Shown piece after piece: positions 2,613 through 20,000 of a stretch of 20,000 nt of DNA (its first letter is position 1; each line of letters begins with the position of its first letter). The notes beneath the pieces were generated by a model, which did no database searches, was not told the DNA's origin, and was given only the letters and a program-made list of their open reading frames with translations. Source of the stretch: an uncultured virus (IMG/VR IMGVR_UViG_3300026478_000873) (lineage: Duplodnaviria > Heunggongvirae > Uroviricota > Caudoviricetes); IMG/VR virus record IMGVR_UViG_3300026478_000873. One strand, written 5' to 3'. The translations under genes were made by a program, and so were the position numbers.

Positions 2613-2635
2613 TTCATCTTTCCATAGATCTTTGC

Positions 2636-2666
2636 TAGCCTTCCCTTACGGGGAGGCTATTTTATT
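2636..2666 (+). terminator. Rho-independent terminator
   Basis: Stem TAGCCTTCCC / GGGGAGGCTA (10 bp, one G-U), loop TTAC, followed by TTTTATT. Confidence 0.8.
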
Positions 2667-3077
2667 GTGAACATTGCACAACTTCGGGAAGTGGTTACTG
2701 AGCTACTTTCCGCATCGCCTAATTTAATTGGCACTTATACATTGCCAAATAATTCAACGCTTCCTGCTGTTTACGTAGTGGGAAGGCAAAGCGTGCCGCA
2801 CGAATGGAAAGTGAAGGGACTGGAAGTGACAATGAGAGAGTTTCCAATCCTTAATCCTGGCTCTCCATTGGGAGGCACTGTAAAAGTGAGTCAAGTATGG
2901 GAAGTGGTTTTAACTCAATTTACACCCAGTAGCAATACGCTCGCTACAGCGATGGACAGAATGGTTAGACGTTTTCCTGATGCCACGCCAAGATATTTTC
3001 AGGGAGATGATATTGCCTATGAGCGCTGTCGATTTTTGATTCCAGATTTAATTCTCCGTAATTTAATTGCGCCATGA
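2667..3077 (+). CDS. Putative tail terminator/tail completion protein
   Basis: 136 aa, GTG start with GGAGG 10 nt upstream; size, alpha/beta pattern and position fit tail terminators. Confidence 0.5.
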   Translation: MNIAQLREVVTELLSASPNLIGTYTLPNNSTLPAVYVVGRQSVPHEWKVKGLEVTMREFPILNPGSPLGGTVKVSQVWEVVLTQFTPSSNTLATAMDRMVRRFPDATPRYFQGDDIAYERCRFLIPDLILRNLIAP

Positions 3078-3526
3078 GTGGAATCATCAATGGAGGCTCA
3101 ATTATTAACGGAAAAATTCTTGAGCAAAAATTAGCGCAAGCTTTTGAAACTTGGGCACGTTTTGATGCGAACGATTATTTTCGCGGACAATTTACGGAAG
3201 ACAAGTGGAACTATCCTGGAGAGACAGAAAGGAAAAGCGGAGAACTTGCCAGGGATCCACGTAATATTTTCGATCTTGGCGATCTTTATAGAAGTGGTAG
3301 GGATAGCTTTAAAATTACGCAAGGAAGCATAGATATCACTGCATCGTGGGATTGGGATGCAAAGAATAGTTCAGGAAGAGGCTATGCGTGGTATGTTCAT
3401 GAAGGACTGTCAACTAATTTGGCGCCAAGGCAGTGGACAGACGTGTTTCAGCAGCGCGATCTATTTGCAAGTAGCAATGTAAGCAAGGAGCTAAGATCGC
3501 GAATACGTAAAGCATTGGGCAAATGA
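3074..3526 (+). CDS. HK97 gp10-like neck/tail completion protein
   Basis: Motifs PRNIFDLGDLYRS and YAWYVHEG...APRQW match the DTGxLxxS ... YAxYVHEG ... PRPF pattern; ATGA overlap with the previous gene. Confidence 0.7.
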   Translation: MSGIINGGSIINGKILEQKLAQAFETWARFDANDYFRGQFTEDKWNYPGETERKSGELARDPRNIFDLGDLYRSGRDSFKITQGSIDITASWDWDAKNSSGRGYAWYVHEGLSTNLAPRQWTDVFQQRDLFASSNVSKELRSRIRKALGK

Positions 3527-3780
3527 ACATCGATTATCTATGGAACCAGGATAATACTGTGCATGCCATTAATTGCGAGCTTAACGGCATGGCTCTAGAC
3601 GTTGGCATATTATGCCTTATTTCTTGCCGGGAAGAGACGCTTAGAATAAGCAACGAAAATCATTCAATGCTGGTTGAAGTGCCTAAGGAATTTCGCTCTA
3701 ACAGCGAAAGAGTGAAGGTGTTCAACGCATTGTTAAACGTTCTTGATCATGAGCAAATACAGCTTCCTTCTGCAAACTAA
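3523..3780 (+). CDS. Hypothetical protein (85 aa)
   Basis: ATGA-coupled to the upstream gene and fills the gap before the chaperone gene, overlapping it by about 32 nt. Confidence 0.6.
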   Translation: MNIDYLWNQDNTVHAINCELNGMALDVGILCLISCREETLRISNENHSMLVEVPKEFRSNSERVKVFNALLNVLDHEQIQLPSAN

Positions 3781-4285
3781 AGCTGAAGATTATTGTGAGC
3801 TTCTTCCCGAAATTCGACTCAAGAAATACGGTGGTTGGCTTGTGGCCGAAGCCATTGAACAGGAAGAAATTAGTAAACTGCAAAGCCAAGCTACTATTAA
3901 AGCTGTGCAACTGGCTAAGCGTATTGCCACTGCAAAGGACATCCCATTAGACGAAGCTTTCGGTTTACTTCAAGGCGGTGGCGGCTCTATTACTGAGGCT
4001 GAGCTTCTTTCCGAATACACGGAAGAAACCCTCAGTATGATTACCAGCGGCTCTTCAGTGGAAAGCACTAACGCTCGTATGGTTACTGCCTTTATTCGCT
4101 CTCGCGGTCAAGGCTTAATTGACGGGGAATGGCAAGACCTTTCTGATTGGGAATTGGATGATACCAAAAATCTGCCTCGCAAAGCCATTGCCAAAGTGGT
4201 TGAATTTATTGCCGAAGAACAAAATGCTGAGACGCAGGAGGCAGTGGCCGCAAAAAAAGCAACGAAGAGGAATTCTCCTCAGTAG
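3749..4285 (+). CDS. Tail assembly chaperone (gpG-like)
   Basis: Acidic helical protein two ORFs upstream of the tape measure gene, ending just after a slippery site. ATG 3749 preferred to TTG 3743. Confidence 0.75.
   Translation: MSKYSFLLQTKAEDYCELLPEIRLKKYGGWLVAEAIEQEEISKLQSQATIKAVQLAKRIATAKDIPLDEAFGLLQGGGGSITEAELLSEYTEETLSMITSGSSVESTNARMVTAFIRSRGQGLIDGEWQDLSDWELDDTKNLPRKAIAKVVEFIAEEQNAETQEAVAAKKATKRNSPQ
4236..4280 (+). other. Programmed -1 ribosomal frameshift signal
   Basis: AGGAGG (4236-4241), 10-nt spacer, A_AAA_AAA (4252-4258) in the correct phase, 8-nt spacer, hairpin GAGGA-ATTC-TCCTC (4267-4280). The -1 frame is open into the next ORF. Confidence 0.75.
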
Positions 4286-10296: not shown

Positions 10297-13200
10297 AATT
10301 ACTTGGCTGTAGCCCTGAGGAATATTGCGCTTTTAAAGAAGAAGTGATGCTGCGCTCCAAAGAGCGTCCAGCAGCGTACGAAGGCATCCCTGATATTGTC
10401 AATGGTGAAACGGCGTGGATTATTGCATCAATTATTATTTCCATTGGCAGCACTGCAGCGAGTTATTTTCTTGCTCCAAAACCTCCCGAAGCCGGTGGAA
10501 CAAAACAACGAAATAGACAGCTAGATAGCATTGTCGGGCGTGATAGATTTGCTCCCACTTTTGGTTTTCAAGCGGGACAAGATATTTCTCGCTACGGCGA
10601 ATCCATCCCCATTGTTTTTACAAAGCATTTTTATCAAGGATTCCTGCGTCAATACATTGGCGGGGTAATGATTAGCCCCAAGCTTGTATGGTCTCGTTCT
10701 TATAGCTGGGGACGTTTTCAAAGCATCGATATGATGTTCTTAGCAGGGCAAGGCCAAATGGGGCGTGGCCCTTATTCCACTGCAGCAGAAATTGCAGAAG
10801 ATCGAGCTGGTGTTTATATTGGGCAGTCTCCCATTGATTCCCTTCTTCCTTCTGATTATCGATGGTTTTATTATCAGGGAGCTGCTGCAAATAGTAATGG
10901 CATTGGCTATGCAAATGATAGTAGGCTTGTTGCGACGCACCATCGCCATGGAGATTGGGGGGATGATGGTCCTCCTAATTCTGCGTTCTATGCCCCGTCT
11001 TTTGCTGGTGGTGACGCAGCCGGCTTTAGTCACTGTTTTTCTCCTTCTACGCAGCTTCAATTTGGCGTATATGGAGCTATTCCTAATGGCACACCTTTAC
11101 GCTTAAATTGGCAAATTATAAGCAACATTGATGACTACACAGACGAAACAAGAGATAGCAATAGGGCTAAGCGTGTGATGATTTGTGGCAATACCAGCAT
11201 GAATGGCATTGGCAGGAATTATCCGAGGCAAATTGGAATTGTATTGCATAATAATTACGCCACTTCATTCACTGGAGACAACGGGGAATATAGAACTATT
11301 CAAAAAGGAGATACTATTACTCTTATATATAATGCGCAGCGGCTTCAAAGACAGTTTTACGCAGAAAGTTATATCGATGAAGACAACATAGATACGCGGG
11401 GCCTTGATAACACTGAAATAATCACAACATCGCAGTCTGAGCTTGAAAAATACGACGAGGTGTTGCAGCGTGGCACTTATTTCTTCGTGGGCAATTGTAA
11501 ATTTATTGTCGACTCAAGAACACCAGCAGATGAAATTTATAATAAGCGCACCAGGAAGGCATTTTCTATCAAATTAAAATGTGTTGAAGTTTATCCAGAT
11601 AAACTTGGCTTTGGCCGCATTGGCATTTGCAATCCATCATATGTCAATAGCACCACTCCACTTCCGCGCAGCAGGGCTGCAGTCGGTACAGATATTGGGG
11701 CTCCATGGTTTCCCTTGTGTCAGGCAGAGGTGGCTTCGTTCCAGAACACTCGCAAGTGTCAATACACGGAAATAGGGATTAAGTCTAATGTTTGGTTGCG
11801 TTTCAATAATTTATGTAACTTTACAAACCTTCCAGAACCGGAGGCTCTTGATAACTTTGATAGCAAAAATATTATACTGTCTGCTGGTACATTACAAACA
11901 TATACCACAAGGGCTTCGTTTTTCTTTATTTACGTAAAGCCCGCCAATGCTTCTTCTTCTCAAGACTGGCATTTGATTACTGACATCCCATTTTGCGTCA
12001 CAGGTTCATCTCCTCAGGATAAATTTAACTTTATTCGCATTGCCCATAATTTTGATCAGTTTGAGTATCAATTGCGCCCAGTATCATCTTCTGAAATTGT
12101 TCATATTATTGGGCGAGATCAATATTGTTTCAGGCTTAACGCCGAGGCGTCATTCTTGCCTCAAGAAACAAAGCAGACGCCTTATGGTCCCTTCACTGTT
12201 TATACCAAGGGAACAAAGGATCAAATAAGCAGCTTTGCTACTAATGATGAATTGATTAATACAAATATTGATAAGGATGCTCAGTATTATACGGATACCG
12301 AAATTGGCGTAAAATTTGTTCGCGCAACATTGCTTAGCAACGGAAGTACGGCATCTCCAAACCAATTAAGCAACGCAATTAGCAAGGCTATTAATAAGGA
12401 CGCCGATCCAAATGCTTCTGAACAGGGATTTCCCGATATCCCATGGGGAGGCATTGGCGAGGGCAGTATTTACACTTTCACAAATCCAGAAGCAAACTTG
12501 TTTAGTGTTGCCCTTTCTAAGAGTGGCCTCTCCAAGGAAATGTCATTAAAAATGGACATTCAAGTGTATAAAGGAACTGCGTCAGGTGACAGAGATTTGT
12601 TTTGGCGCATTGTTGATATTCGGCCAATTAATGTCACATCTGATAATAATTTTAAGTGGAGCAAGGGAGACGTATTTACGATTACAAAATCACTAATCAA
12701 TCCTATTGATTCTGTTGTTTTTCATTTTGAAGTTACTCGTGGCATCTCTGGAAAGCTGCCTAATGCAACCGTGGCACCTGGGCAGTACGAACGTATTTTT
12801 GAAGGTAATTCTGCCATCGCTGAAGTTTCGCACTATGGAGATTTAATTAGCAGGAGTTGCGACAATGGCCCGGAGCATGAAGTGGTATATGTAAATGAAA
12901 GCCTTACGCCAACAAATATTCCCACTTATGAAGGATGCGCAATGGCCGGTCTTCGCATTCGCAGCGGACGCAACATGAGCCAGTTGGAGCAGCTTCATTT
13001 ATATCAAAAGAATGGCATTCAAGTGGAGCTTGTAAGGAGCACTGGAAAGCCTTACGCGGTTGGTCCGTCGAATATATTTACGGATCTTGTGTATTATTTG
13101 CTGACCAACAAGCAAGCTGGCATGGGAGGATTAGTTGGTGATTCAGTGGTTGATGTAGAGAGTTTTCAAGAAACCGCAAAATTTCTTGAAAGTAATTATT

Positions 13201-14123
13201 TGTATTACGACGATGTAATTACGGAGCCTAAAAATCTTAGGGATTTTATTGCTTCCATCGTCCCATCATTACTATGCACATTGTCCACTCGCAATGGGAA
13301 GATTGCTATTACTCCGGCATTACCCGCTCAGCGCACTGGATCTATTGAACCATTGGTAAGCGTGCCAATTCGTGCAATGTTTACTGATGGCAATATTATT
13401 GAAGACTCCTTTGAGCTGCAGCACATTTCTGCTGACGACAGAAAACCATTCAAGGCGTCCATTCGTTATAGGCAAGAAAAGACGAATCAATTCCCGGAAG
13501 AAAAAAATATTGTCGTCTACTACAACGACCAAGCTGATGCTCCTATTGAGCAATTTGATTTCACTCACATTACTTCACGCATCCATGCAGAGCAGGCAGC
13601 CAAGTATTTGTTGAGTTCACGCAGAAATATTACGCATACTATTAGCTTCAAGGCTGTGCCATATGGCATTGCATTGGCTCCAGGCGATTACATTCGCGTT
13701 GTAACGCAAAGTAATATTTTTGATCCCGATGCAAATAATGGCGTCATCTTAGACGATCAAGATGACAATGCAAATGATCCGCGCAAAGGTAACTTTGCTG
13801 GTGGCACCATTGTTTCTTTTGAGCCAATTCCAGATGGAAACCACCCGGTGTTTTTATGGGACAGGACAAATCAAGATGTGCAGGATACAACTATTTTGGT
13901 AAAGGATGGAATGGCTTTTAATCAGCGCAATGCCATGTTCTGTCTTCGCAAAGACATTAATAGGGAAGAAGTGTACACGGTTGAATCTCTTCAGTTAGAT
14001 GAAGATGGAATGGTAATGATTACTGCCAGTTATTTTCCTCTTTATGGCGGCACAGATTACAGTAAAATTGCATATGAGGTGGTACGCGGTGGACAAATTG
14101 GTTTCACCGTCGAAGCAAACTAA
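10248..14123 (+). CDS. Tail tip hub / host-specificity protein (gpJ-like)
   Basis: About 1290 aa; N-terminal hydrophobic helix ending FLAPKP, YGESIPIVF, AMFTDGNIIEDSF, ALAPGDYIRV and YTVESL...MITASYFP motifs typical of gpJ-like proteins. ATG 10248 (or 10263) more likely than TTG 10221. Confidence 0.85.
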   Translation: MSRFSMPILPYERQLIELLGCSPEEYCAFKEEVMLRSKERPAAYEGIPDIVNGETAWIIASIIISIGSTAASYFLAPKPPEAGGTKQRNRQLDSIVGRDRFAPTFGFQAGQDISRYGESIPIVFTKHFYQGFLRQYIGGVMISPKLVWSRSYSWGRFQSIDMMFLAGQGQMGRGPYSTAAEIAEDRAGVYIGQSPIDSLLPSDYRWFYYQGAAANSNGIGYANDSRLVATHHRHGDWGDDGPPNSAFYAPSFAGGDAAGFSHCFSPSTQLQFGVYGAIPNGTPLRLNWQIISNIDDYTDETRDSNRAKRVMICGNTSMNGIGRNYPRQIGIVLHNNYATSFTGDNGEYRTIQKGDTITLIYNAQRLQRQFYAESYIDEDNIDTRGLDNTEIITTSQSELEKYDEVLQRGTYFFVGNCKFIVDSRTPADEIYNKRTRKAFSIKLKCVEVYPDKLGFGRIGICNPSYVNSTTPLPRSRAAVGTDIGAPWFPLCQAEVASFQNTRKCQYTEIGIKSNVWLRFNNLCNFTNLPEPEALDNFDSKNIILSAGTLQTYTTRASFFFIYVKPANASSSQDWHLITDIPFCVTGSSPQDKFNFIRIAHNFDQFEYQLRPVSSSEIVHIIGRDQYCFRLNAEASFLPQETKQTPYGPFTVYTKGTKDQISSFATNDELINTNIDKDAQYYTDTEIGVKFVRATLLSNGSTASPNQLSNAISKAINKDADPNASEQGFPDIPWGGIGEGSIYTFTNPEANLFSVALSKSGLSKEMSLKMDIQVYKGTASGDRDLFWRIVDIRPINVTSDNNFKWSKGDVFTITKSLINPIDSVVFHFEVTRGISGKLPNATVAPGQYERIFEGNSAIAEVSHYGDLISRSCDNGPEHEVVYVNESLTPTNIPTYEGCAMAGLRIRSGRNMSQLEQLHLYQKNGIQVELVRSTGKPYAVGPSNIFTDLVYYLLTNKQAGMGGLVGDSVVDVESFQETAKFLESNYLYYDDVITEPKNLRDFIASIVPSLLCTLSTRNGKIAITPALPAQRTGSIEPLVSVPIRAMFTDGNIIEDSFELQHISADDRKPFKASIRYRQEKTNQFPEEKNIVVYYNDQADAPIEQFDFTHITSRIHAEQAAKYLLSSRRNITHTISFKAVPYGIALAPGDYIRVVTQSNIFDPDANNGVILDDQDDNANDPRKGNFAGGTIVSFEPIPDGNHPVFLWDRTNQDVQDTTILVKDGMAFNQRNAMFCLRKDINREEVYTVESLQLDEDGMVMITASYFPLYGGTDYSKIAYEVVRGGQIGFTVEAN

Positions 14124-14125
14124 TC

Positions 14126-14506
14126 ATGAGTCTTCCAGACATCACGCCCACTTCTCGATCACTAAATCTTGGTCCATGGCCGCTTAAAACTTTCCGTCTC
14201 AATAATGGAGCTGAAATTCGGCGTCTTTATGGCAATAGGCGAAATAATTTAGAGCTTGAACTTACCTACGAAAACTTACCAGACAGCGTGGCAAATCAAT
14301 TTAGAGAGAAATATGATGATACAAAGGGAGGGTTTGATACATTTCGACTTCCAGGCAATACATTTGCTGGGTGGACAAGTGACTCTGGCACCTATATTGG
14401 ACCCACTGCCAACGTTTGGAGATATAAAGAGCCTCCCACTATTACCAATGTAAAAAGAGGTGTTAGCACTGTGCAGGTGGTCTTAATTAGCGTGTTTGTT
14501 CAATAA
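14126..14506 (+). CDS. Distal-tail-like minor tail protein (gpM/Dit-like)
   Basis: 126 aa; 'NGAEIRRLYG..LELTYENL..F..YD..KGGFDTF..WRY..PP' resembles the gpM/DUF2460 pattern. Confidence 0.6.
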   Translation: MSLPDITPTSRSLNLGPWPLKTFRLNNGAEIRRLYGNRRNNLELELTYENLPDSVANQFREKYDDTKGGFDTFRLPGNTFAGWTSDSGTYIGPTANVWRYKEPPTITNVKRGVSTVQVVLISVFVQ

Positions 14507-14521
14507 GACACGTTGGAACAA

Positions 14522-14532
14522 TTAGACTAATT
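14522..14532 (+). promoter_or_regulatory. Putative late promoter -10 element (TTAGACTAATT)
   Basis: Intergenic, 16 nt before ATG 14549; identical to 1964-1974. Confidence 0.5.
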
Positions 14533-14548
14533 AGTAGGTGACTGTGCT

Positions 14549-14989
14549 ATGACTTATTTCACTGGACGAAATGGGAAAATGGTGGTCGGTGGTTCTACCA
14601 TCGCCAAGGTTACATCATGGTCCATGAACGCAGACTTGGACCTTTTGGAAACCACTGCATTAAATGATGCCAATAAAAGTTTTGTAGCCAATCTTCCTAC
14701 TTATACTGGTAGTGCCACAATTTTATATTACAAAGATGCTGCTGGCGCCTTTGAAACTGATGGCATTTTTGGCAGATTATTAAGGCGAAACGCATCACTA
14801 GCAACTGCTACTTTGCGGCTACAAATAGCGGACGGTAACACTGTGCGAGAAGTAGTTTTAGAAGCATTTATTACATCATTAGCCATTGGAAGTTCTGTGG
14901 GAGAAATCGTATCAGCAGATATTAATTTCCAGGCAACGGGAGACCTTGCCGATCCTACGGCTCAAGCACCTGCTGGTGTTGCATTGTAA
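14549..14989 (+). CDS. Tail-tube-fold minor tail protein
   Basis: GRNGKM..IAKVTSWSM..DLLETTAL..YTGSATILY..FITSLAIGSSVGEIVSADINFQATG is a tube-protein pattern. Confidence 0.7.
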   Translation: MTYFTGRNGKMVVGGSTIAKVTSWSMNADLDLLETTALNDANKSFVANLPTYTGSATILYYKDAAGAFETDGIFGRLLRRNASLATATLRLQIADGNTVREVVLEAFITSLAIGSSVGEIVSADINFQATGDLADPTAQAPAGVAL

Positions 14990-14991
14990 TC

Positions 14992-15912
14992 ATGAGTGTT
15001 TATCTTGGACATCGAGGGCGAATTGAACTGCAGCGCACTGGGCAGTCAAAGATTGTCACCAATGTATTGGCTAATCATGTCAATGCCGATTTAGATCGGC
15101 TTCAATTGGATTTTGGTCAAGAGAACGGAGTGGATTTATTATGCCCTTTTAATAATGGCGATGAGATAGAATTTCGCGGGCCAATAAACGCCGCAGGAAA
15201 TCGCACATTATTATCTTTTGTATCGGCTAGTGGCTGGTCAGATGGCAATCAGCATGGCTCTGGAAAATGGTTTGTTAATGTTGATGACCTAGGTGGAATA
15301 CGCCTTTATTCAAGTTTTGAGGCAAGTCTGGCTGGAGATACTGGTACGTCTATTCCATTGGAAACACTTGCTAATGATATTGACAATGTAGAACTAGAGC
15401 TTGCAAATAATATCCCGCGCATACTAGGCAGGGCTATTTCTTGGGAATTAAATACAACCAGGGAGAATGTTGATACGACTGTATTAATGGATCAATTCAG
15501 GAGTCAATGGTCGAGTTTGATGTCTGGAAGTGGGCGAATTAATGCTCAATGGAATTACAGAGAAGAAGTTGGAGAAACCGGAATTGATATTTCCAATTAT
15601 TTTCTACAGCTAGCTTTGCGTACTGAAATTGGGGCTCAGTTTAAGGCTCAATTGTTCCTTAAAACTCCTGGAGCTGGAGGCTTAAATCCAGACGGCACTG
15701 ACGACGCGCTTTGGTATGACATTTCTGGAGTGGTTACGCAAGCGGGGGTGCAAGTGTCGCCAGATGCATTGATAGAAGTTGGAATAGATTTTATTACAAC
15801 GGGACCAATTAAATTACTTGCTCGTACTATTCCATTGGATGTTATCTTGCAGGAAAATGGAGATGATCTTTTGTTAGATGGTTTAGTTGCTGGCCGCCTC
15901 TTGCTAGAGTGA
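14992..15912 (+). CDS. Tube-fold protein with inserted domain (putative fibre-attachment collar)
   Basis: First ~15 aa and the second half (LGRAISWELNTTRENVDTT..SGSGRI..VVTQAGVQV..IEVGIDFITTG) align by eye with the preceding ORF; ~125-aa insertion in between; C-terminal ILQENGDDLLLD peptide. Confidence 0.6.
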   Translation: MSVYLGHRGRIELQRTGQSKIVTNVLANHVNADLDRLQLDFGQENGVDLLCPFNNGDEIEFRGPINAAGNRTLLSFVSASGWSDGNQHGSGKWFVNVDDLGGIRLYSSFEASLAGDTGTSIPLETLANDIDNVELELANNIPRILGRAISWELNTTRENVDTTVLMDQFRSQWSSLMSGSGRINAQWNYREEVGETGIDISNYFLQLALRTEIGAQFKAQLFLKTPGAGGLNPDGTDDALWYDISGVVTQAGVQVSPDALIEVGIDFITTGPIKLLARTIPLDVILQENGDDLLLDGLVAGRLLLE

Positions 15913-15940: not shown

Positions 15941-18265
15941 ATGGCCGACCTTAAAATTTCTCAACTTACAGAACTTGCTGCCGCTGATTTGGCAAGCGAT
16001 GATGTGTTGGCTGTTGTTAATCTTGGCACTGGAGAAACGCGAAAAATCAAGGCCACTTCATTAATTAATAGAAGCGTAATTTTTCTTTCTGGCAGTACCA
16101 TTTCTGGAAGTGCTGTTAATTTTAGTAGCGTTACTATTAGTGGAACATCTTTAGCAAGCGGCACAGTTTCGTCTGGTAATATTGCGTTTAATTCAATTAC
16201 TGCTCAATTATTGGCAGACAATAGCGTCAATGTAGTAGACAGCGCTCTGCCAGCGTCTGGTGAATTTTTAGGGCAATTTGCTACTACAACTGGAGATGAT
16301 TTTATTTATGCATGGGATGGATCATCTTGGTCTCCTATTAAAGCGGCTGGATCTATTGCTTCTGTTAGTGGTGTAGCATCTGGCATTGTAAATATTGCTT
16401 CTATTACAACTAGCGGAAATGCCGTCATTAGTGGTTATTTATCTGCCACTACTTCCGGCTCTCAATTCCTAGCTGGGCCGACTGGAGCTGGAGGATCAGT
16501 ATATTATCGCCCTATTGAATCTTCCGATCTTCCCATTGCTACCACGGCCCAAGCGGGAGCTGTCATTATCAATGGAAATGGCCTGACGCTAAGTGGCAAC
16601 ACTGTTGCCATTGACAATTTTATTTCCACTGCTTCTGGCTTTTTAGGCGTTGCAGTTAATGAATATGGCTTGATTACTCATACCAGGGCTGTTGTTGGAG
16701 CGGATCTCCCCATTGCTCAATCTGGAATTACTGGAGCGGTTCAGCCCGGTACTGGCCTTGATGTGGATGGTGTGGGAACTATTGGCCATTCCAACTCCAT
16801 TGCATCTGGAGTGGTAAACGGCATTACATTTGATACTGAAGGGCACATTACAAATGCCATCCCATTAATTGCAGCAGATATTCCAAATCTTGATGCCAGC
16901 AAGATAACGACTGGCACCCTTGACAATGCGCGCATAGCTGCTCAAAGTATTGTGGGCGCCAAACTGGCCGATAGGTCTACGGCGCAATTCGGTGATAATC
17001 AACCCACTGCAGAATATATTGGCCAGCTTTATTTTAATAGCCTTTCACGAGATATTTATATTTGGGACGGCAACGTTTGGCAGCCGATTGGTATTTCAGT
17101 TGGTGAAATTGTATTCGCCGGTACATACGATGCAGGTACCAATTTAGTTGCTTCTGTGACCAGCGATGGTTCTGCTGTTGGCTTAGTAGTTGGACAAGCA
17201 CTGCCTGCTGCCGCCACTGCAAATAATAGATATTATCTTGTTGTTTCGGAAGCAGGCACTGGCACTGGTAATGCACCAAATGTAGCGCTTGCACCTCCAG
17301 ATATTATTCTTTCCAATGGAAGCGCATGGACTGAAATTGACGTTAGTCAAACTCTTACTAACGTAACAGCAAACCAAGTTTCCTATACGCCCGCTGGAAA
17401 CATTGCTGCAACAAATGTACAAGCGGCATTGGATGAATTAGATAATGAAAAGCTTGCCGTAAGCGGCGGGACAGTTACGGGAGTAATTACCCTTAGCAAT
17501 ACAAGTAGTGGCATTGCTTTTGAAGGCACTACTGATAATGCTTTTGAGACTTTACTCAATGCTGTAGATCCAACCGCCGACAATACAATATTATTACCAA
17601 ACCTTAGTGGCACATTAATTACCACCGGAGATACGGCCACAATTAGTGGTGTCATGATTGCTAGTGGCACTATTACTAACGCCAAAATCAGTCCAACTGC
17701 GGCTATTGACGGAGCAAAAATTCAAGCAGCAAGCACGACGACGAGTGGCGTTGTTGTGTTAGTGGATTCAACTAGCAGCACAAGCACGTCTACTGCCGCC
17801 ACTCCGAATTCAGTTAAGACTGCTTATGATCTAGCAAATGCAGCGCTACCATCATCTGGTGGCACAATGACAGGAGCAATTACATTTGCCTCTGGACAAA
17901 CTATTAGCGGATATGCACAACTAGCGAGTGCGCAAAGCTTTACTGCGGCTCAGCGGGGTTCAGTTGTTAGCGTTGCTGGAAGCGGAACTGTAACGCTTAA
18001 TTTAGCATTGGGCAATAATTTTGCTGCCACATTGAGTGGAACCACTACTTATGCATTGCCGTCTGGAATGACTGCGGGCCAAAGCGGGGCTTTAGTGCTA
18101 ACGCAAGATGGCACAGGAAGTCGCCTGGTTTCCTTCTCTGGATGGAAATTCCCTGGCGGGACAGCTCCAACTGCCACTACAACGGCATCGGGAGTTGACG
18201 TGGTTGTTTATTACGTCGAAAGTGCTTCTAGAATTAGCGCTCGCATGGTTAATGATGTGAAGTAG
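15941..18265 (+). CDS. Side tail fibre protein
   Basis: 774 aa, Ser/Thr/Gly/Ala-rich; N-terminal MADLKISQLTEL; tail-fibre repeat ASTTTSGVVVLVDSTSSTSTSTAATPNSVKTAYDLA (~17729-17839); C-terminal domain with GQSG..LTQDGTGSR..WKFPGGTAPT..VD. Confidence 0.85.
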   Translation: MADLKISQLTELAAADLASDDVLAVVNLGTGETRKIKATSLINRSVIFLSGSTISGSAVNFSSVTISGTSLASGTVSSGNIAFNSITAQLLADNSVNVVDSALPASGEFLGQFATTTGDDFIYAWDGSSWSPIKAAGSIASVSGVASGIVNIASITTSGNAVISGYLSATTSGSQFLAGPTGAGGSVYYRPIESSDLPIATTAQAGAVIINGNGLTLSGNTVAIDNFISTASGFLGVAVNEYGLITHTRAVVGADLPIAQSGITGAVQPGTGLDVDGVGTIGHSNSIASGVVNGITFDTEGHITNAIPLIAADIPNLDASKITTGTLDNARIAAQSIVGAKLADRSTAQFGDNQPTAEYIGQLYFNSLSRDIYIWDGNVWQPIGISVGEIVFAGTYDAGTNLVASVTSDGSAVGLVVGQALPAAATANNRYYLVVSEAGTGTGNAPNVALAPPDIILSNGSAWTEIDVSQTLTNVTANQVSYTPAGNIAATNVQAALDELDNEKLAVSGGTVTGVITLSNTSSGIAFEGTTDNAFETLLNAVDPTADNTILLPNLSGTLITTGDTATISGVMIASGTITNAKISPTAAIDGAKIQAASTTTSGVVVLVDSTSSTSTSTAATPNSVKTAYDLANAALPSSGGTMTGAITFASGQTISGYAQLASAQSFTAAQRGSVVSVAGSGTVTLNLALGNNFAATLSGTTTYALPSGMTAGQSGALVLTQDGTGSRLVSFSGWKFPGGTAPTATTTASGVDVVVYYVESASRISARMVNDVK

Positions 18266-18275
18266 GAGAAAACTA

Positions 18276-18419
18276 ATGATTCCAGGAAATATTAATTCTT
18301 TACTGCTTGCTGCCGATGCAGCGCCTACTGGTTATAGTATCTCACGTTCACTGCGGTTCAACAGTAGTGACAGTGACTTGTGGCAAAACCTTTGTAATAC
18401 ACAGGAGGCAGCAAAATGA
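18276..18419 (+). CDS. 47-aa stub: N-terminus of a lectin-type receptor-binding protein with a short unrelated tail (not in the ORF track)
   Basis: AGGAG SD at 18264-18268; translates MIPGNINSLLLAADAAPTGYSISRSLRFNSSDSDLWQNLCNTQEAAK*; its TGA overlaps the ATG of the next gene (ATGA); N-terminus is similar to that of the next gene. Confidence 0.7.
   Translation: MIPGNINSLLLAADAAPTGYSISRSLRFNSSDSDLWQNLCNTQEAAK
18348..18377. repeat. Imperfect dyad plus tandem hexamer; candidate recombination junction
   Basis: TCACTGCGGTT-C-AACAGTAGTGA (9/11 inverted match, 18348-18370) overlapping AGTGAC-AGTGAC (18366-18377). Confidence 0.45.
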
Positions 18420-19945
18420 CTATCCCAGGAAGCGCAATATCTCTTCTTCTTGCAGGCGCAGCTACCGACCCTAACCTTGTCGAGATCTACGCCTGGGGCG
18501 GTGGCGGTGGGAGCGGCTATGCAGGTGGATCAGGTGCTGGCGGAGGCGGTGGTGCGGTTTACGCAACTGCTGTAATAAGCCCATCTCAGGTTTACAACGT
18601 CATTGTCGGTGGCGGCGGTTTAACAATGGCACCCAATGCAGGCACGGGCGGCACCGTGTCCGGCGGCGGTGGATTAGCTGGCACAAGTGGCTATGGCGGC
18701 CAAGGCGGCGGATATTCAGGGATTTTTATTGGCGCTGCAGCAACCCAAAATGCCGCGCTTGTTATTGCCGGTGGTGGTGGTGGTGGCGCTTATGAAGGTG
18801 CTGCCGGTGGCGCTGGTGGTGGATCTACAGGTGCCGCAGGAGGCAGCGGAGCTGCTGCTGGTGGCGGAGGCGGAACGCAAAGTGCAGGTGGCACCTCTTC
18901 GCATTCGGGTGTTGGCACTGCGCTGAAAGGAGGCGATTGCGGAACATCGGGAGACGGTGGAGGCGGCGGCGGTGGAGGCGGCGGTTATTGGGGCGGCGGT
19001 GCTGGCTCTGGAGCAAACCCTGGCTCAGCCGGTGGTGGCGGTTCTGGGTATATCAACACGCTGCAAACACTAACCGGCACGCTTTACGCAGGTTCTGGTG
19101 CTACTCCAGGAAATAGCGGCAGTTCTTTTAGAGGAAGCTATGGCAATGGCGGGGCCAGCGGCGCGAACAACGGCTTGCAAGGTGTTGTTATTATTCGCTA
19201 TCAAGGCACACCGCGCTATACAGGCGGGACGATCACTCAATCTGGCGGGTACACAACACATACATTTACAGCAAATGGCTATCTAAATCTGAATACGGTT
19301 CTTTTGATGCCATTCAAGACATCGGCAACTGCAGACCATTCCCCCATTCCAAAGACAGTCACCATGAACGGTACTGTCACGATTTCATCGACTCAGTCAA
19401 AGTATTATGGTGCTAGCGCCTATTTCTCCAATGGAAACTGGCTGTCTGTCGCCGCTTCAAACGATTTTCTTTTTGCAGCTAATGATTTTACGATGGAATT
19501 GTGGATTTACCCAACCACAAACGCTTATGATATCTTTGGTGCTCTGGGGGGAAAACTTGCGCTTGGCTTGATTATTGGCAATTCATATAACTTTTCCAGG
19601 GCCGATGGAACAATCACTTTTGCCGACGACGGCTCGGGCGGCATTGTTACTAATTACCCGAATCAAAACTCAGTGAGCGGGCCAATGGTGGTCAACCAAT
19701 GGCAGCACCTTGCGTTTGTCCGCAGTGGCACGTCATTTTTGATATTTAGAGACGGTCAGCTTTTAAGCACCACAACTGTCAGCTCTTCCAATAATAACGT
19801 CGGCAGCAGTTCTCTCGCCATGGGAATTGGGCGTTTAACTGGATCAACCAATAGGCCAGTCACTGGATACATCCAAGATCTTGCTGTTTATAAGGGTTAT
19901 GCAAAATACACCGGAACGTTTACGCCTCCAGGTCCCCTTACATAA
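18416..19945 (+). CDS. Glycine-rich adhesin with C-terminal LamG/concanavalin-A-like domain (putative receptor-binding protein)
   Basis: AGGAGG SD at 18403-18408; Gly-rich domain (AWGGGGG...GVVIIRY...YTTHTFT) up to ~19280; LamG-like domain (DFTMELWIYP, NQWQHLAFVRSG, IFRDGQL, GYIQDLAVYKGYAKYT). Confidence 0.85.
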   Translation: MTIPGSAISLLLAGAATDPNLVEIYAWGGGGGSGYAGGSGAGGGGGAVYATAVISPSQVYNVIVGGGGLTMAPNAGTGGTVSGGGGLAGTSGYGGQGGGYSGIFIGAAATQNAALVIAGGGGGGAYEGAAGGAGGGSTGAAGGSGAAAGGGGGTQSAGGTSSHSGVGTALKGGDCGTSGDGGGGGGGGGGYWGGGAGSGANPGSAGGGGSGYINTLQTLTGTLYAGSGATPGNSGSSFRGSYGNGGASGANNGLQGVVIIRYQGTPRYTGGTITQSGGYTTHTFTANGYLNLNTVLLMPFKTSATADHSPIPKTVTMNGTVTISSTQSKYYGASAYFSNGNWLSVAASNDFLFAANDFTMELWIYPTTNAYDIFGALGGKLALGLIIGNSYNFSRADGTITFADDGSGGIVTNYPNQNSVSGPMVVNQWQHLAFVRSGTSFLIFRDGQLLSTTTVSSSNNNVGSSSLAMGIGRLTGSTNRPVTGYIQDLAVYKGYAKYTGTFTPPGPLT

Positions 19946-20000
19946 GGCATGTCAATTCTTCAATTACGCCCGCGCCCGCTGACCCCACTAGAGAACAAGG

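Follow-up and report, generated by a model that had tools for sequence, protein, structure and literature searches.

Segments of tail-fibre and adhesin genes are exchanged between phages at conserved motifs, as in gp37/gp38 of the T-even phages and in the side tail fibres of P2, P1, Mu and lambda, and variable distal parts are also served by invertible tail-fibre segments and shufflons (Gin of Mu, Cin of P1, Rci of R64). Morons, in turn, are additional genes that sit between phage genes and bring along their own signals for transcription. The stretch of DNA analysed here, a window of 20,000 nucleotides (nt) that corresponds to bases 20543-40542 of the 78,772-nt uncultured Caudoviricetes record IMGVR_UViG_3300026478_000873, contains a 47-amino-acid (aa) open reading frame (ORF) at 18276..18419 on the plus strand, between a tail fibre gene and the gene of a glycine-rich (Gly-rich)/LamG tail protein. 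This stub is very probably the leftover front of a large tail-protein gene, the body of which was replaced by another tail gene, with no programmed switch. The feature is a tail-gene replacement scar, and represents ordinary, if unusually clean, phage mosaicism. The record combines sequence of two phages (backbones A and B), and the same architecture was found in three further backbones (C, D and lineage E).

As in the exchange of fibre segments, a host-recognition module is swapped here between unrelated phages, and the constant N-terminal attachment part stays with the backbone. Fibre-segment exchange yields in-frame chimeric fibres, however, whereas the incoming gene at this locus is complete with its own Shine-Dalgarno (SD) sequence, the old N-terminus persists as an ORF of its own, the 47-aa stub, and the N-terminal peptide is present once more in the new protein. 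With shufflons and invertible fibres the locus shares a constant N-terminal module, variable distal parts and, in backbone B, a nearby recombinase gene, but unlike in those systems no inverted sites or silent segments were found, the contigs showed no alternative junctions, and the integrase is an ordinary one. The likeness to a moron consists of a foreign gene with its own ribosome-binding site in the late region; however, the unit lies within a gene and replaces its body, and a simple consensus scan of the plus strand from 17800 to 20000 gave no promoter-like or terminator-like site, i.e. none of the transcription signals of a moron.

Rad52-like recombinases make mosaics at short, diverged sequences, with a block of near-100% identity flanked by weaker homology, according to De Paepe et al. 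2014 (PMC3945230), in which a case of stf exchange is also mentioned. The present locus shows the same pattern as the 'relaxed' recombination of that text, i.e. a near-100% block in diverged genomes with homologous recombination (HR) traces: a 1644-nt segment of over 90% identity is shared between genomes whose flanking tail genes have about 65% DNA identity, the 5′ part of the stub and the fibre gene are 65-81% identical on the left, and the 3′ scar and a short box are widely conserved on the right. In further likeness to that account, backbone B has a Sak-type single-strand annealing protein (SSAP), and the putative recombination arms consist of perfect runs of 19-22 nt and of up to 43 nt. 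The phages of that paper are lambdoid coliphages, in contrast to the uncultured river phages here, and the arms at the present locus are the conserved ends of one gene, leaving a 5′ stub and a 3′ scar.

The stub ORF is preceded by AGGAG (18264..18268, plus strand), which lies 7 nt 5′ of the ATG, overlaps the stop codon of the fibre gene and, by direct reading, originally served the former large gene as its start signal. Its translation is MIPGNINSLLLAADAAPTGYSISRSLRFNSSDSDLWQNLCNTQEAAK, with a TGA stop that overlaps the ATG of the Gly-rich/LamG gene (ATGA). The first-pass annotation had reported this unlisted ORF with its own SD after the tail fibre gene, and both the signal and the exact 47-aa sequence were confirmed. 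The stub protein is on record in 27 contigs and gave no Pfam match and no PHROG match.

Residues 1-33 of the stub (70% coverage) match four longer proteins of 802-969 aa (P0004-P0007), which contain SPRY and DUF7483 domains, start with MIP..LLL..PTGYxIxRSLRFNSxDSAYLxRT and run on past residue 33 as AYLSRTPASAGNRKTW... The motif 'GY-x-I-x-RSLRFNS-x-DS', which the first-pass annotation had named as the opening of long tail proteins, is accordingly present in just such proteins, and its view that the stub is the constant front module of a long tail protein of LamG type agrees with the match of the intact relatives to residues 1-33. The N-terminal motif of the LamG/SPRY/DUF7483 family (M-x-PG..LLL...RSLRFNSxDS) is retained in the stub; the LamG body, SPRY and the C-terminal DUF7483 (about 800 aa) are not, and no DUF7483 was detected anywhere in the record. 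The motif is encoded by at least 555 viral loci, of which 80 were kept, and all 80 match beyond the break, to query residue 57-60. An ORF could be read by motif parsing in 73 loci (no ORF was parsed in the other 7): 49 were closed at 780-1178 aa, 22 were cut by the locus end and two were short and closed, at 547 aa (L068) and 87 aa (L089). In L089 a frameshift follows the 87 aa at an unrelated position, and a close relative from the same sample (L063) is intact at 814 aa; the L089 break is either a pseudogene or a sequencing error.

The intact gene of contig L101 has 34-44% aa identity, over 94-99% of its length, with proteins of cultured aquatic phages, namely Methylophilales phage MEP301, Roseobacter phage CRP-811, pelagiphages HTVC011P and others, and cyanophage SS120-1. 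Their annotations name SPRY-domain, lectin-domain, virion structural or tail fibre proteins, and the PHROG assignments of the L101 gene are to virion structural and tail fibre families. A literature search on 'DUF7483' returned no papers, and the MEP301 paper held no passage on the SPRY protein. In the aquatic phages the LamG/SPRY/DUF7483 proteins are intact, whereas the window keeps 33 N-terminal and 7 C-terminal codons.

The position of the break was read from an alignment of five stubs with two intact genes. All are common up to ...AGTGACAGTG, which ends at 18375, beyond which the intact genes continue with CCTACTTGTCC, the stubs of backbones A-D with ACTTGTGGCAAAACC and the stub of lineage E with GTTTCGAC; the break is ambiguous between 18375 and 18381, because ACTTGT is common to both sides. 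The 5′ remnant, as defined by protein and DNA alignments, comprises 33 codons and 1 nt of the LamG/SPRY/DUF7483 gene (18276..18375, plus strand). It is followed by a foreign leader (18376..18415, plus strand), without homology to the intact genes, which provides the last 14 stub codons and contains AGGAGG at 18403-18408, 7 nt 5′ of the ATG of the Gly-rich/LamG gene. These features agree with the earlier observation that the ~40 nt after the break look like the leader of the next gene, and the proposed joint between a constant module and another cassette holds in so far as the junction lies at or next to the point indicated, at 18375-18381.

The other end of the replaced gene was found behind the Gly-rich/LamG gene. 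At 19959..19982 (plus strand) the sequence TTCAATTACGCCCGCGCCCGCTGA encodes FNYARAR and a stop, and homology to the end of the intact L101 gene (..AFAESPFNYARAR and stop) begins at genome position 40500. Directly after the stop follows a conserved 18-nt box, CCCCACTAGAGAACAAGG (19983..20000, plus strand), which forms the last 18 bases of the window and is also present in two B-like contigs with the intact gene (L100 and L101). In L101 the order is fibre gene (...TLITNLS and stop), 818-aa gene (...FAESPFNYARAR and stop; ...YIYAAFAESPFNYARAR and stop), 18-nt box and 284-aa integrase gene; in L100 an 804-aa gene in the same place is followed by a 96-nt spacer, the box and the integrase gene. Backbone B is 80.5% identical to L101 up to the stub and 90.8% identical from genome position 40500 on. 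The remnants at both ends, together with the intact gene in B-like relatives, argue for replacement of the gene body, in which about 1.58 kb (window ~18376-19957), consisting of the leader, its SD and the complete Gly-rich/LamG gene, would have taken the place of codons 34 to ~811. The first of the two alternatives in the first-pass annotation, insertion of the Gly-rich/LamG gene at this site, was essentially right, although the event is better described as a body replacement that left a 3′ scar.

The incoming gene (18416..19945, plus strand) encodes 509 aa, with Pfam Laminin_G_3 at residues 346-493 and matches to PHROG baseplate or unknown families. Its first ~17 residues (MTIPGSAISLLLAGAAT) belong to the N-terminal motif family of the displaced gene (compare the start of L063, MTIPGSANPLLLTAAAT), and because the incoming protein opens with the same ~17-aa peptide, it probably docks at the same place of the virion as the displaced one. 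A search of GenBank phage DNA with window positions 17800-19000 gave just an uninformative 37-nt Gly-rich match to a Caulobacter phage. In independent k=31 contigs assembled from the river metagenome runs X1, X2 and X5, which also supplied the depths given below (X15 is an RNA run), the Gly-rich region at 18790-18985 (3307-3526 of contig L097) shows loose ends, and one joint from 3332 to 3504 of L097 skips 171 nt in frame with just 22 nt of support on its shorter side; this joint could represent tract length variants or cross-matches from other Gly-rich genes.

The unit lies in the 1644-nt segment already mentioned (18357..20000, plus strand; genome 38899-40542), which is near letter-identical after the left flanks of A, B and C and is the assembly-graph repeat behind the chimeric record. 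Between contigs of A-type and of B-type left flank the segment is 99.9-100% identical, and the C contigs carry its two end portions at their own ends, with 99.2% identity over 127 nt. The stub junction was present in eight viral contigs with three left flanks, i.e. A-type (L009, L012), B-type (L006, L008, L010, L011) and C-type (L005, L007, in records of 58 and 83 kb, with a stub that begins MSTPGSVIPLLLGSTATAYNVERSLRF...), and contigs end at the segment edges. Backbones A, B and C converge to identity where ..CG(G/T) meets TTCAACAGTAGTGAC. Backbone D (L109, L107) has the unit at 95-98% aa identity, is identical only from GTGACAGTGAC on, 8-11 nt further right, and carries its own version of the 3′ scar, TTCAACTACGCCCGAGCCCGATGA. 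In lineage E (L108) the Gly-rich protein is about 77% identical in aa and the break is the same; the distance from GACAGTG through ATG is 53 nt, the same as in A-D, 19 of the 46 leader nt are identical, the stub stop likewise overlaps the next ATG, and no recognisable 3′ scar was found. The right flanks diverge straight after the box, where B continues with TTAAAGCG (integrase stop) and the 83-kb contig G002 with ATAGTCTGC (small membrane protein gene). In X2, a loose end at position 4524 of L097 (genome 40524) marks a further left context that joins 18 nt before the right end of the segment, and because this context resembles the small ORF between intact gene and box in L100, phages with a B-type right flank and without the Gly-rich unit co-occur in the sample.

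The structure of the record bears on whether the stub-to-leader junction could have been made by the assembler, by wrongly joining two phages within the conserved motif: the chimeric nature of the record is demonstrable, and the break comes 18 nt after the start of its repeat. The 18-mer AACAGTAGTGACAGTGAC has two plus-strand copies in direct orientation, at genome positions 38902 and 78649, within an exact repeat of 127 nt (38899-39025 and 78646-78772) that runs to the contig end; 127 nt is, we assume, the largest k-mer of usual metaSPAdes runs. The two halves are colinear in the tail-tip module alone (tape measure gene to fibre gene), with an offset of about 39.7 kb, 36-50% aa identity and about 65% DNA identity. 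In the window this module ends with the 774-aa tail fibre gene of backbone A (15941..18265, plus strand; Pfam Phage_fiber_2, PHROG tail fibre families), immediately 5′ of the stub; the fibre encoded by this gene has 49% aa identity with the 809-aa fibre of backbone B. The head genes of half A are a portal gene (PF06381), DUF2213 and a capsid gene (PF09950), whereas half B contains large terminase, DUF4055 portal, Mu F, scaffold protein and Gp13-like capsid genes, and in addition lysozyme, Sak-like SSAP, RusA, PD-(D/E)XK nuclease and the 284-aa tyrosine integrase. The GC percentage is 46.3 in A, 52.2 in B and 53.2 in the shared segment.

The depths agree with two phages. In X2 the A backbone formed one 38,971-nt contig with a depth of 28.4, the B flank had a depth of 52.2, and the shared segment was its own 1643-nt contig with a depth of 81.4, to be compared with the sum of 80.6 (28.4 + 52.2); in X5, too, the segment was a separate 1643-nt contig with about the summed depth of the A and B backbones. 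The A:B depths were 28.4:52.2 in X2 (0.54), 19.4:24.7 in X5 (0.79) and 8.07:5.85 in X1 (about 1.4). IMG/VR contigs of other samples end at positions equivalent to genome 39011-39025, or start or end at 40416-40419 and 40541-40542, and a 38,343-nt B contig has both its ends within the segment. We conclude that the record is a 'lollipop' assembly, in which a partial phage A (1-38898) runs into a circular phage B (38899-78645, 39,747 bp) via the shared repeat, the two co-occurring phages having been merged by the assembler because the shared unit is identical in both. The database rating of the record as 100% complete and linear is therefore misleading. The second copy of the site, which the first-pass annotation could not see within the window, belongs to phage B.

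The chimeric join does not extend to the stub-to-leader junction, which we take to be real; that it should be an artefact is hardly credible. The break lies inside the shared segment and not at its edge, and the junction occurs in eight viral contigs and one metagenome contig from several samples, the stub protein being found on 27. Moreover, a single k=31 contig of 3326 nt from X1 runs from the A fibre gene through the stub to the segment end, and the diverged lineage E has the same architecture. The metagenome contig (L137, 3734 nt) was the one informative case among five relatives confirmed in a metagenome scan with generic Gly-rich patterns. It combines a C-type fibre and stub, the shared segment and the B-type integrase flank, and is either a real recombinant or a further mis-join across the repeat.

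The two remnants coincide with parts of the gene that are letter-perfect in many phages. The left arm, TTCAACAGTAGTGACAGTG (18357..18375, plus strand), covers codons F28-S33 and a G and is the point where A/B/C identity starts; this 19-mer was exact in 107 viral contigs, 99 with the intact gene (FNSSDS, then A/G and Y/F/H), 8 with the stub and none with another junction. Breaks at random positions, expected in the first-pass annotation for pseudogene decay, were not seen among these 107 contigs, which show one kind of break. The right 18-mer, TACGCCCGCGCCCGCTGA, was exact in 40 viral contigs, 34 times behind an intact C-terminus, four times behind the Gly-rich gene and twice elsewhere, and 24 of the 40 have the 17-mer CCCCACTAGAGAACAAG after the stop. 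Upstream, over 2.5 kb, the longest exact run between A and the other backbones is 13-14 nt; since no run exceeds 14 nt there, the arm of 19-22 nt is the best available seed between A and the others.

The box itself, CCCCACTAGAGAACAAG(A/G), was near-exact after the DUF7483 gene stop in about 32 of 40 loci (L249-L288), and a terminator, a regulatory site or a module boundary are its candidate roles. In a further contig, L289 (G004:C1:1-2149, ~560-670), the SPRY part is kept and is followed by a different, shorter C-terminal end (...GDAFKYARAQIN and stop), with the old 3′ scar TACGCCCGCGCCCGCTGA and the box 7 nt after the new end; this arrangement is a second, independent 3′-end replacement at the same right arm.

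On these grounds the following course of events is proposed. In these river phages, the place directly after the fibre gene is normally taken by the gene of an ~800-aa LamG/SPRY/DUF7483 virion (distal tail) protein. In one ancestor, the gene body, beginning at codon 34 and reaching to within about 7 codons of the stop, would have been replaced by ~1.58 kb, after which the 5′ remnant would read on in frame through the new leader and give the 47-aa ORF. Because the DNA of the two remnants is letter-perfect in many phages, they could act as homology arms, and recombination in these arms may have moved the unit into several backbones with different head and replication modules, probably with the help of phage single-strand annealing proteins (backbone B encodes the Sak-like SSAP, RusA and PD-(D/E)XK nuclease). 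As judged from the boundaries of identity, spread by homologous recombination at the conserved gene ends is the most likely explanation.

Several observations weigh against this scheme, or at least against its details. The mechanism of spread is inferred from the boundaries, and recombination itself was unobserved. No donor context turned up for the Gly-rich gene, more distant Gly-rich homologues having other N-termini and other neighbours. The pairs B-C and B-D have equally long exact runs (21-25 nt) further upstream, and all left crossovers in A, B, C and D nevertheless fall within the last ~20 nt beside the heterology, so that some site preference may be involved. Short-read assemblies cannot phase flanks across a 1.6-kb repeat, and the true right flank of phage A is unplaced: a search of the first 20 kb of phage A against the records that hold L005, L007 and L011 gave no match, and the balance of depths in X2 points to A as the owner of the ATAGTC... 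flank without establishing it. Finally, the contigs of X1, X2, X5 and X15 contain no joint or loose end at the break, although contigs drop rare variants and a rare junction could be missed; the loose ends that were seen sit at the segment edges (L097 2899 and 4542) and represent other backbones.

A programmed site-specific switch of the shufflon, Min/Gin/Cin or excision type, in which a recombinase acting at a CAGTAGTGACAGTG-like site would pick the adhesin body, is a very improbable alternative. The left identity boundaries of A, B and C agree within 3 nt, as such a switch would have it, and the record holds a second exact copy of the site, but this copy is direct, not inverted, and sits in the second phage of the assembler chimera, whereas in backbone D the boundary lies 8-11 nt further right. 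Neither the 14-mer nor the 18-mer had a minus-strand match at ≤1 mismatch in the whole record, and a six-frame search of the 78,772 nt gave no DUF7483 and a single Laminin_G_3, the expressed gene itself, and hence no silent body. The search for site copies with start-less LamG frames on both strands, proposed in the first-pass annotation, thus returned one direct copy of the site and no start-less frame. Among the 99 intact and eight stub contigs with the exact 19-mer, the stub is of one kind, with no other junction.

A recombinase is also at hand. The first-pass annotation noted none in the window; a 284-aa tyrosine integrase gene of backbone B (genome 40543-41397, minus strand; PHROG integrase) starts one base past its end, immediately after the segment. 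However, L100 and L101 have the integrase next to their intact gene as well, and it is absent behind the segment in G002 and behind the gene of lineage E. It is thus an ordinary integrase, and no dedicated recombinase tied to a variable segment was found. No serine invertase turned up in the 108 ORFs that were scanned (111 were called), the sole related match being a weak HTH_7 below cut-off in a 115-aa protein. The inversion or excision system suggested earlier is hence refuted as far as these data allow: neither an inverted site nor a silent cassette was found, and the contigs show no alternative junction. The integrase gene is arranged tail-to-tail with the Gly-rich/LamG gene. Phages D and E (L107, L108) lack an integrase gene here: their box-like sequence leads into a small hairpin and then the next gene, which makes the integrase module look inserted immediately behind the 18-nt box.

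The imperfect dyad at the break (18348..18376, plus strand; 18348-18370 in the first-pass annotation) is no better than chance and is limited to backbone A, which also argues against a switch. Folded as DNA, the 50 nt around it gave −6.2 kcal/mol (z = −0.62), a value equalled by 49 of 200 shuffles, and the homologous stretch of the second copy, in B, is without the fold (z = +1.29). Its left arm is backbone-specific sequence that differs in B, C and D, and the dyad can therefore no longer be regarded as a meaningful feature. The tandem AGTGAC AGTGAC (AGTGACAGTGAC) is indeed present at 18366-18377, but carries no meaning of its own: the second 'AC' is a product of the junction, the sequence at this position being AGTGACAGTGCC in the intact genes and AGTGACAGTGGT in lineage E. 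Two further candidates were dropped, namely a −1 frameshift at CAAAATGA fusing the stub to the Gly-rich protein (lineage E reads CCAATGA) and terminal inverted repeats at the segment ends, judged by eye, both ends being explained as remnants of the old gene.

The stub might instead be alive, either as a translated relay, linking translation of the new gene to that of the fibre gene through the series of fibre stop, stub and ATGA overlap, or as a peptide that is all anchor and fills the docking site; we consider this unlikely. None of the five backbones (A-E) has lost the start codon or frame of the stub, or the core motif RSLRF, although the 5′ parts may be fresh, each derived from a recently intact gene of its own backbone. 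The break-to-ATG length is equal, and the stub stop overlaps the next ATG, in both cassette lineages, which are 77% identical in aa; the 14 tail residues, on the other hand, are not conserved between them (leader 19/46 nt, about 2-3 of 14 aa), and an open 14-codon frame of the same phase is estimated to arise by chance roughly once in six cases. The Gly-rich/LamG gene has a strong SD of its own. A contig of the RNA library X15 covers the fibre gene, stub, Gly-rich gene and integrase gene, but does not demonstrate transcription or translation and may be DNA carry-over. A wider proposal, in which the stub is under selection as a relay or anchor peptide (for coupling, or for tuning the occupancy of the docking site) and the gene ends serve as a community-wide landing pad for varied tail-protein bodies, is likewise rather doubtful.

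Half A also carries genes outside the tail and head modules. A ribonucleotide reductase fragment, a xylose-isomerase-like TIM barrel protein, an FAD oxidoreductase-like protein, a GT4 glycosyltransferase and a DUF4422 protein are encoded in genome regions 2616-4067, 11874-15557 and 16209-16979, all of them between the portal gene and the capsid-assembly genes. In the 38.9 kb of phage A that the record contains, no gene was recognised as a terminase.

For the use of such records, the 78.8-kb assembly is unfit to serve as one genome in taxonomy, host prediction or gene-content statistics, and in several other samples, too, contigs are broken or wrongly joined at the shared 1.6-kb repeat. For the biology of these phages, the locus provides a base-by-base case of a host-recognition gene moving between unrelated environmental phages, in which letter-perfect stretches of one tail gene would serve as natural homology arms and the scars are a start-only ORF of 47 aa and a 7-codon end. 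Such stubs are usable as metagenome markers of recent receptor-binding-gene replacement.

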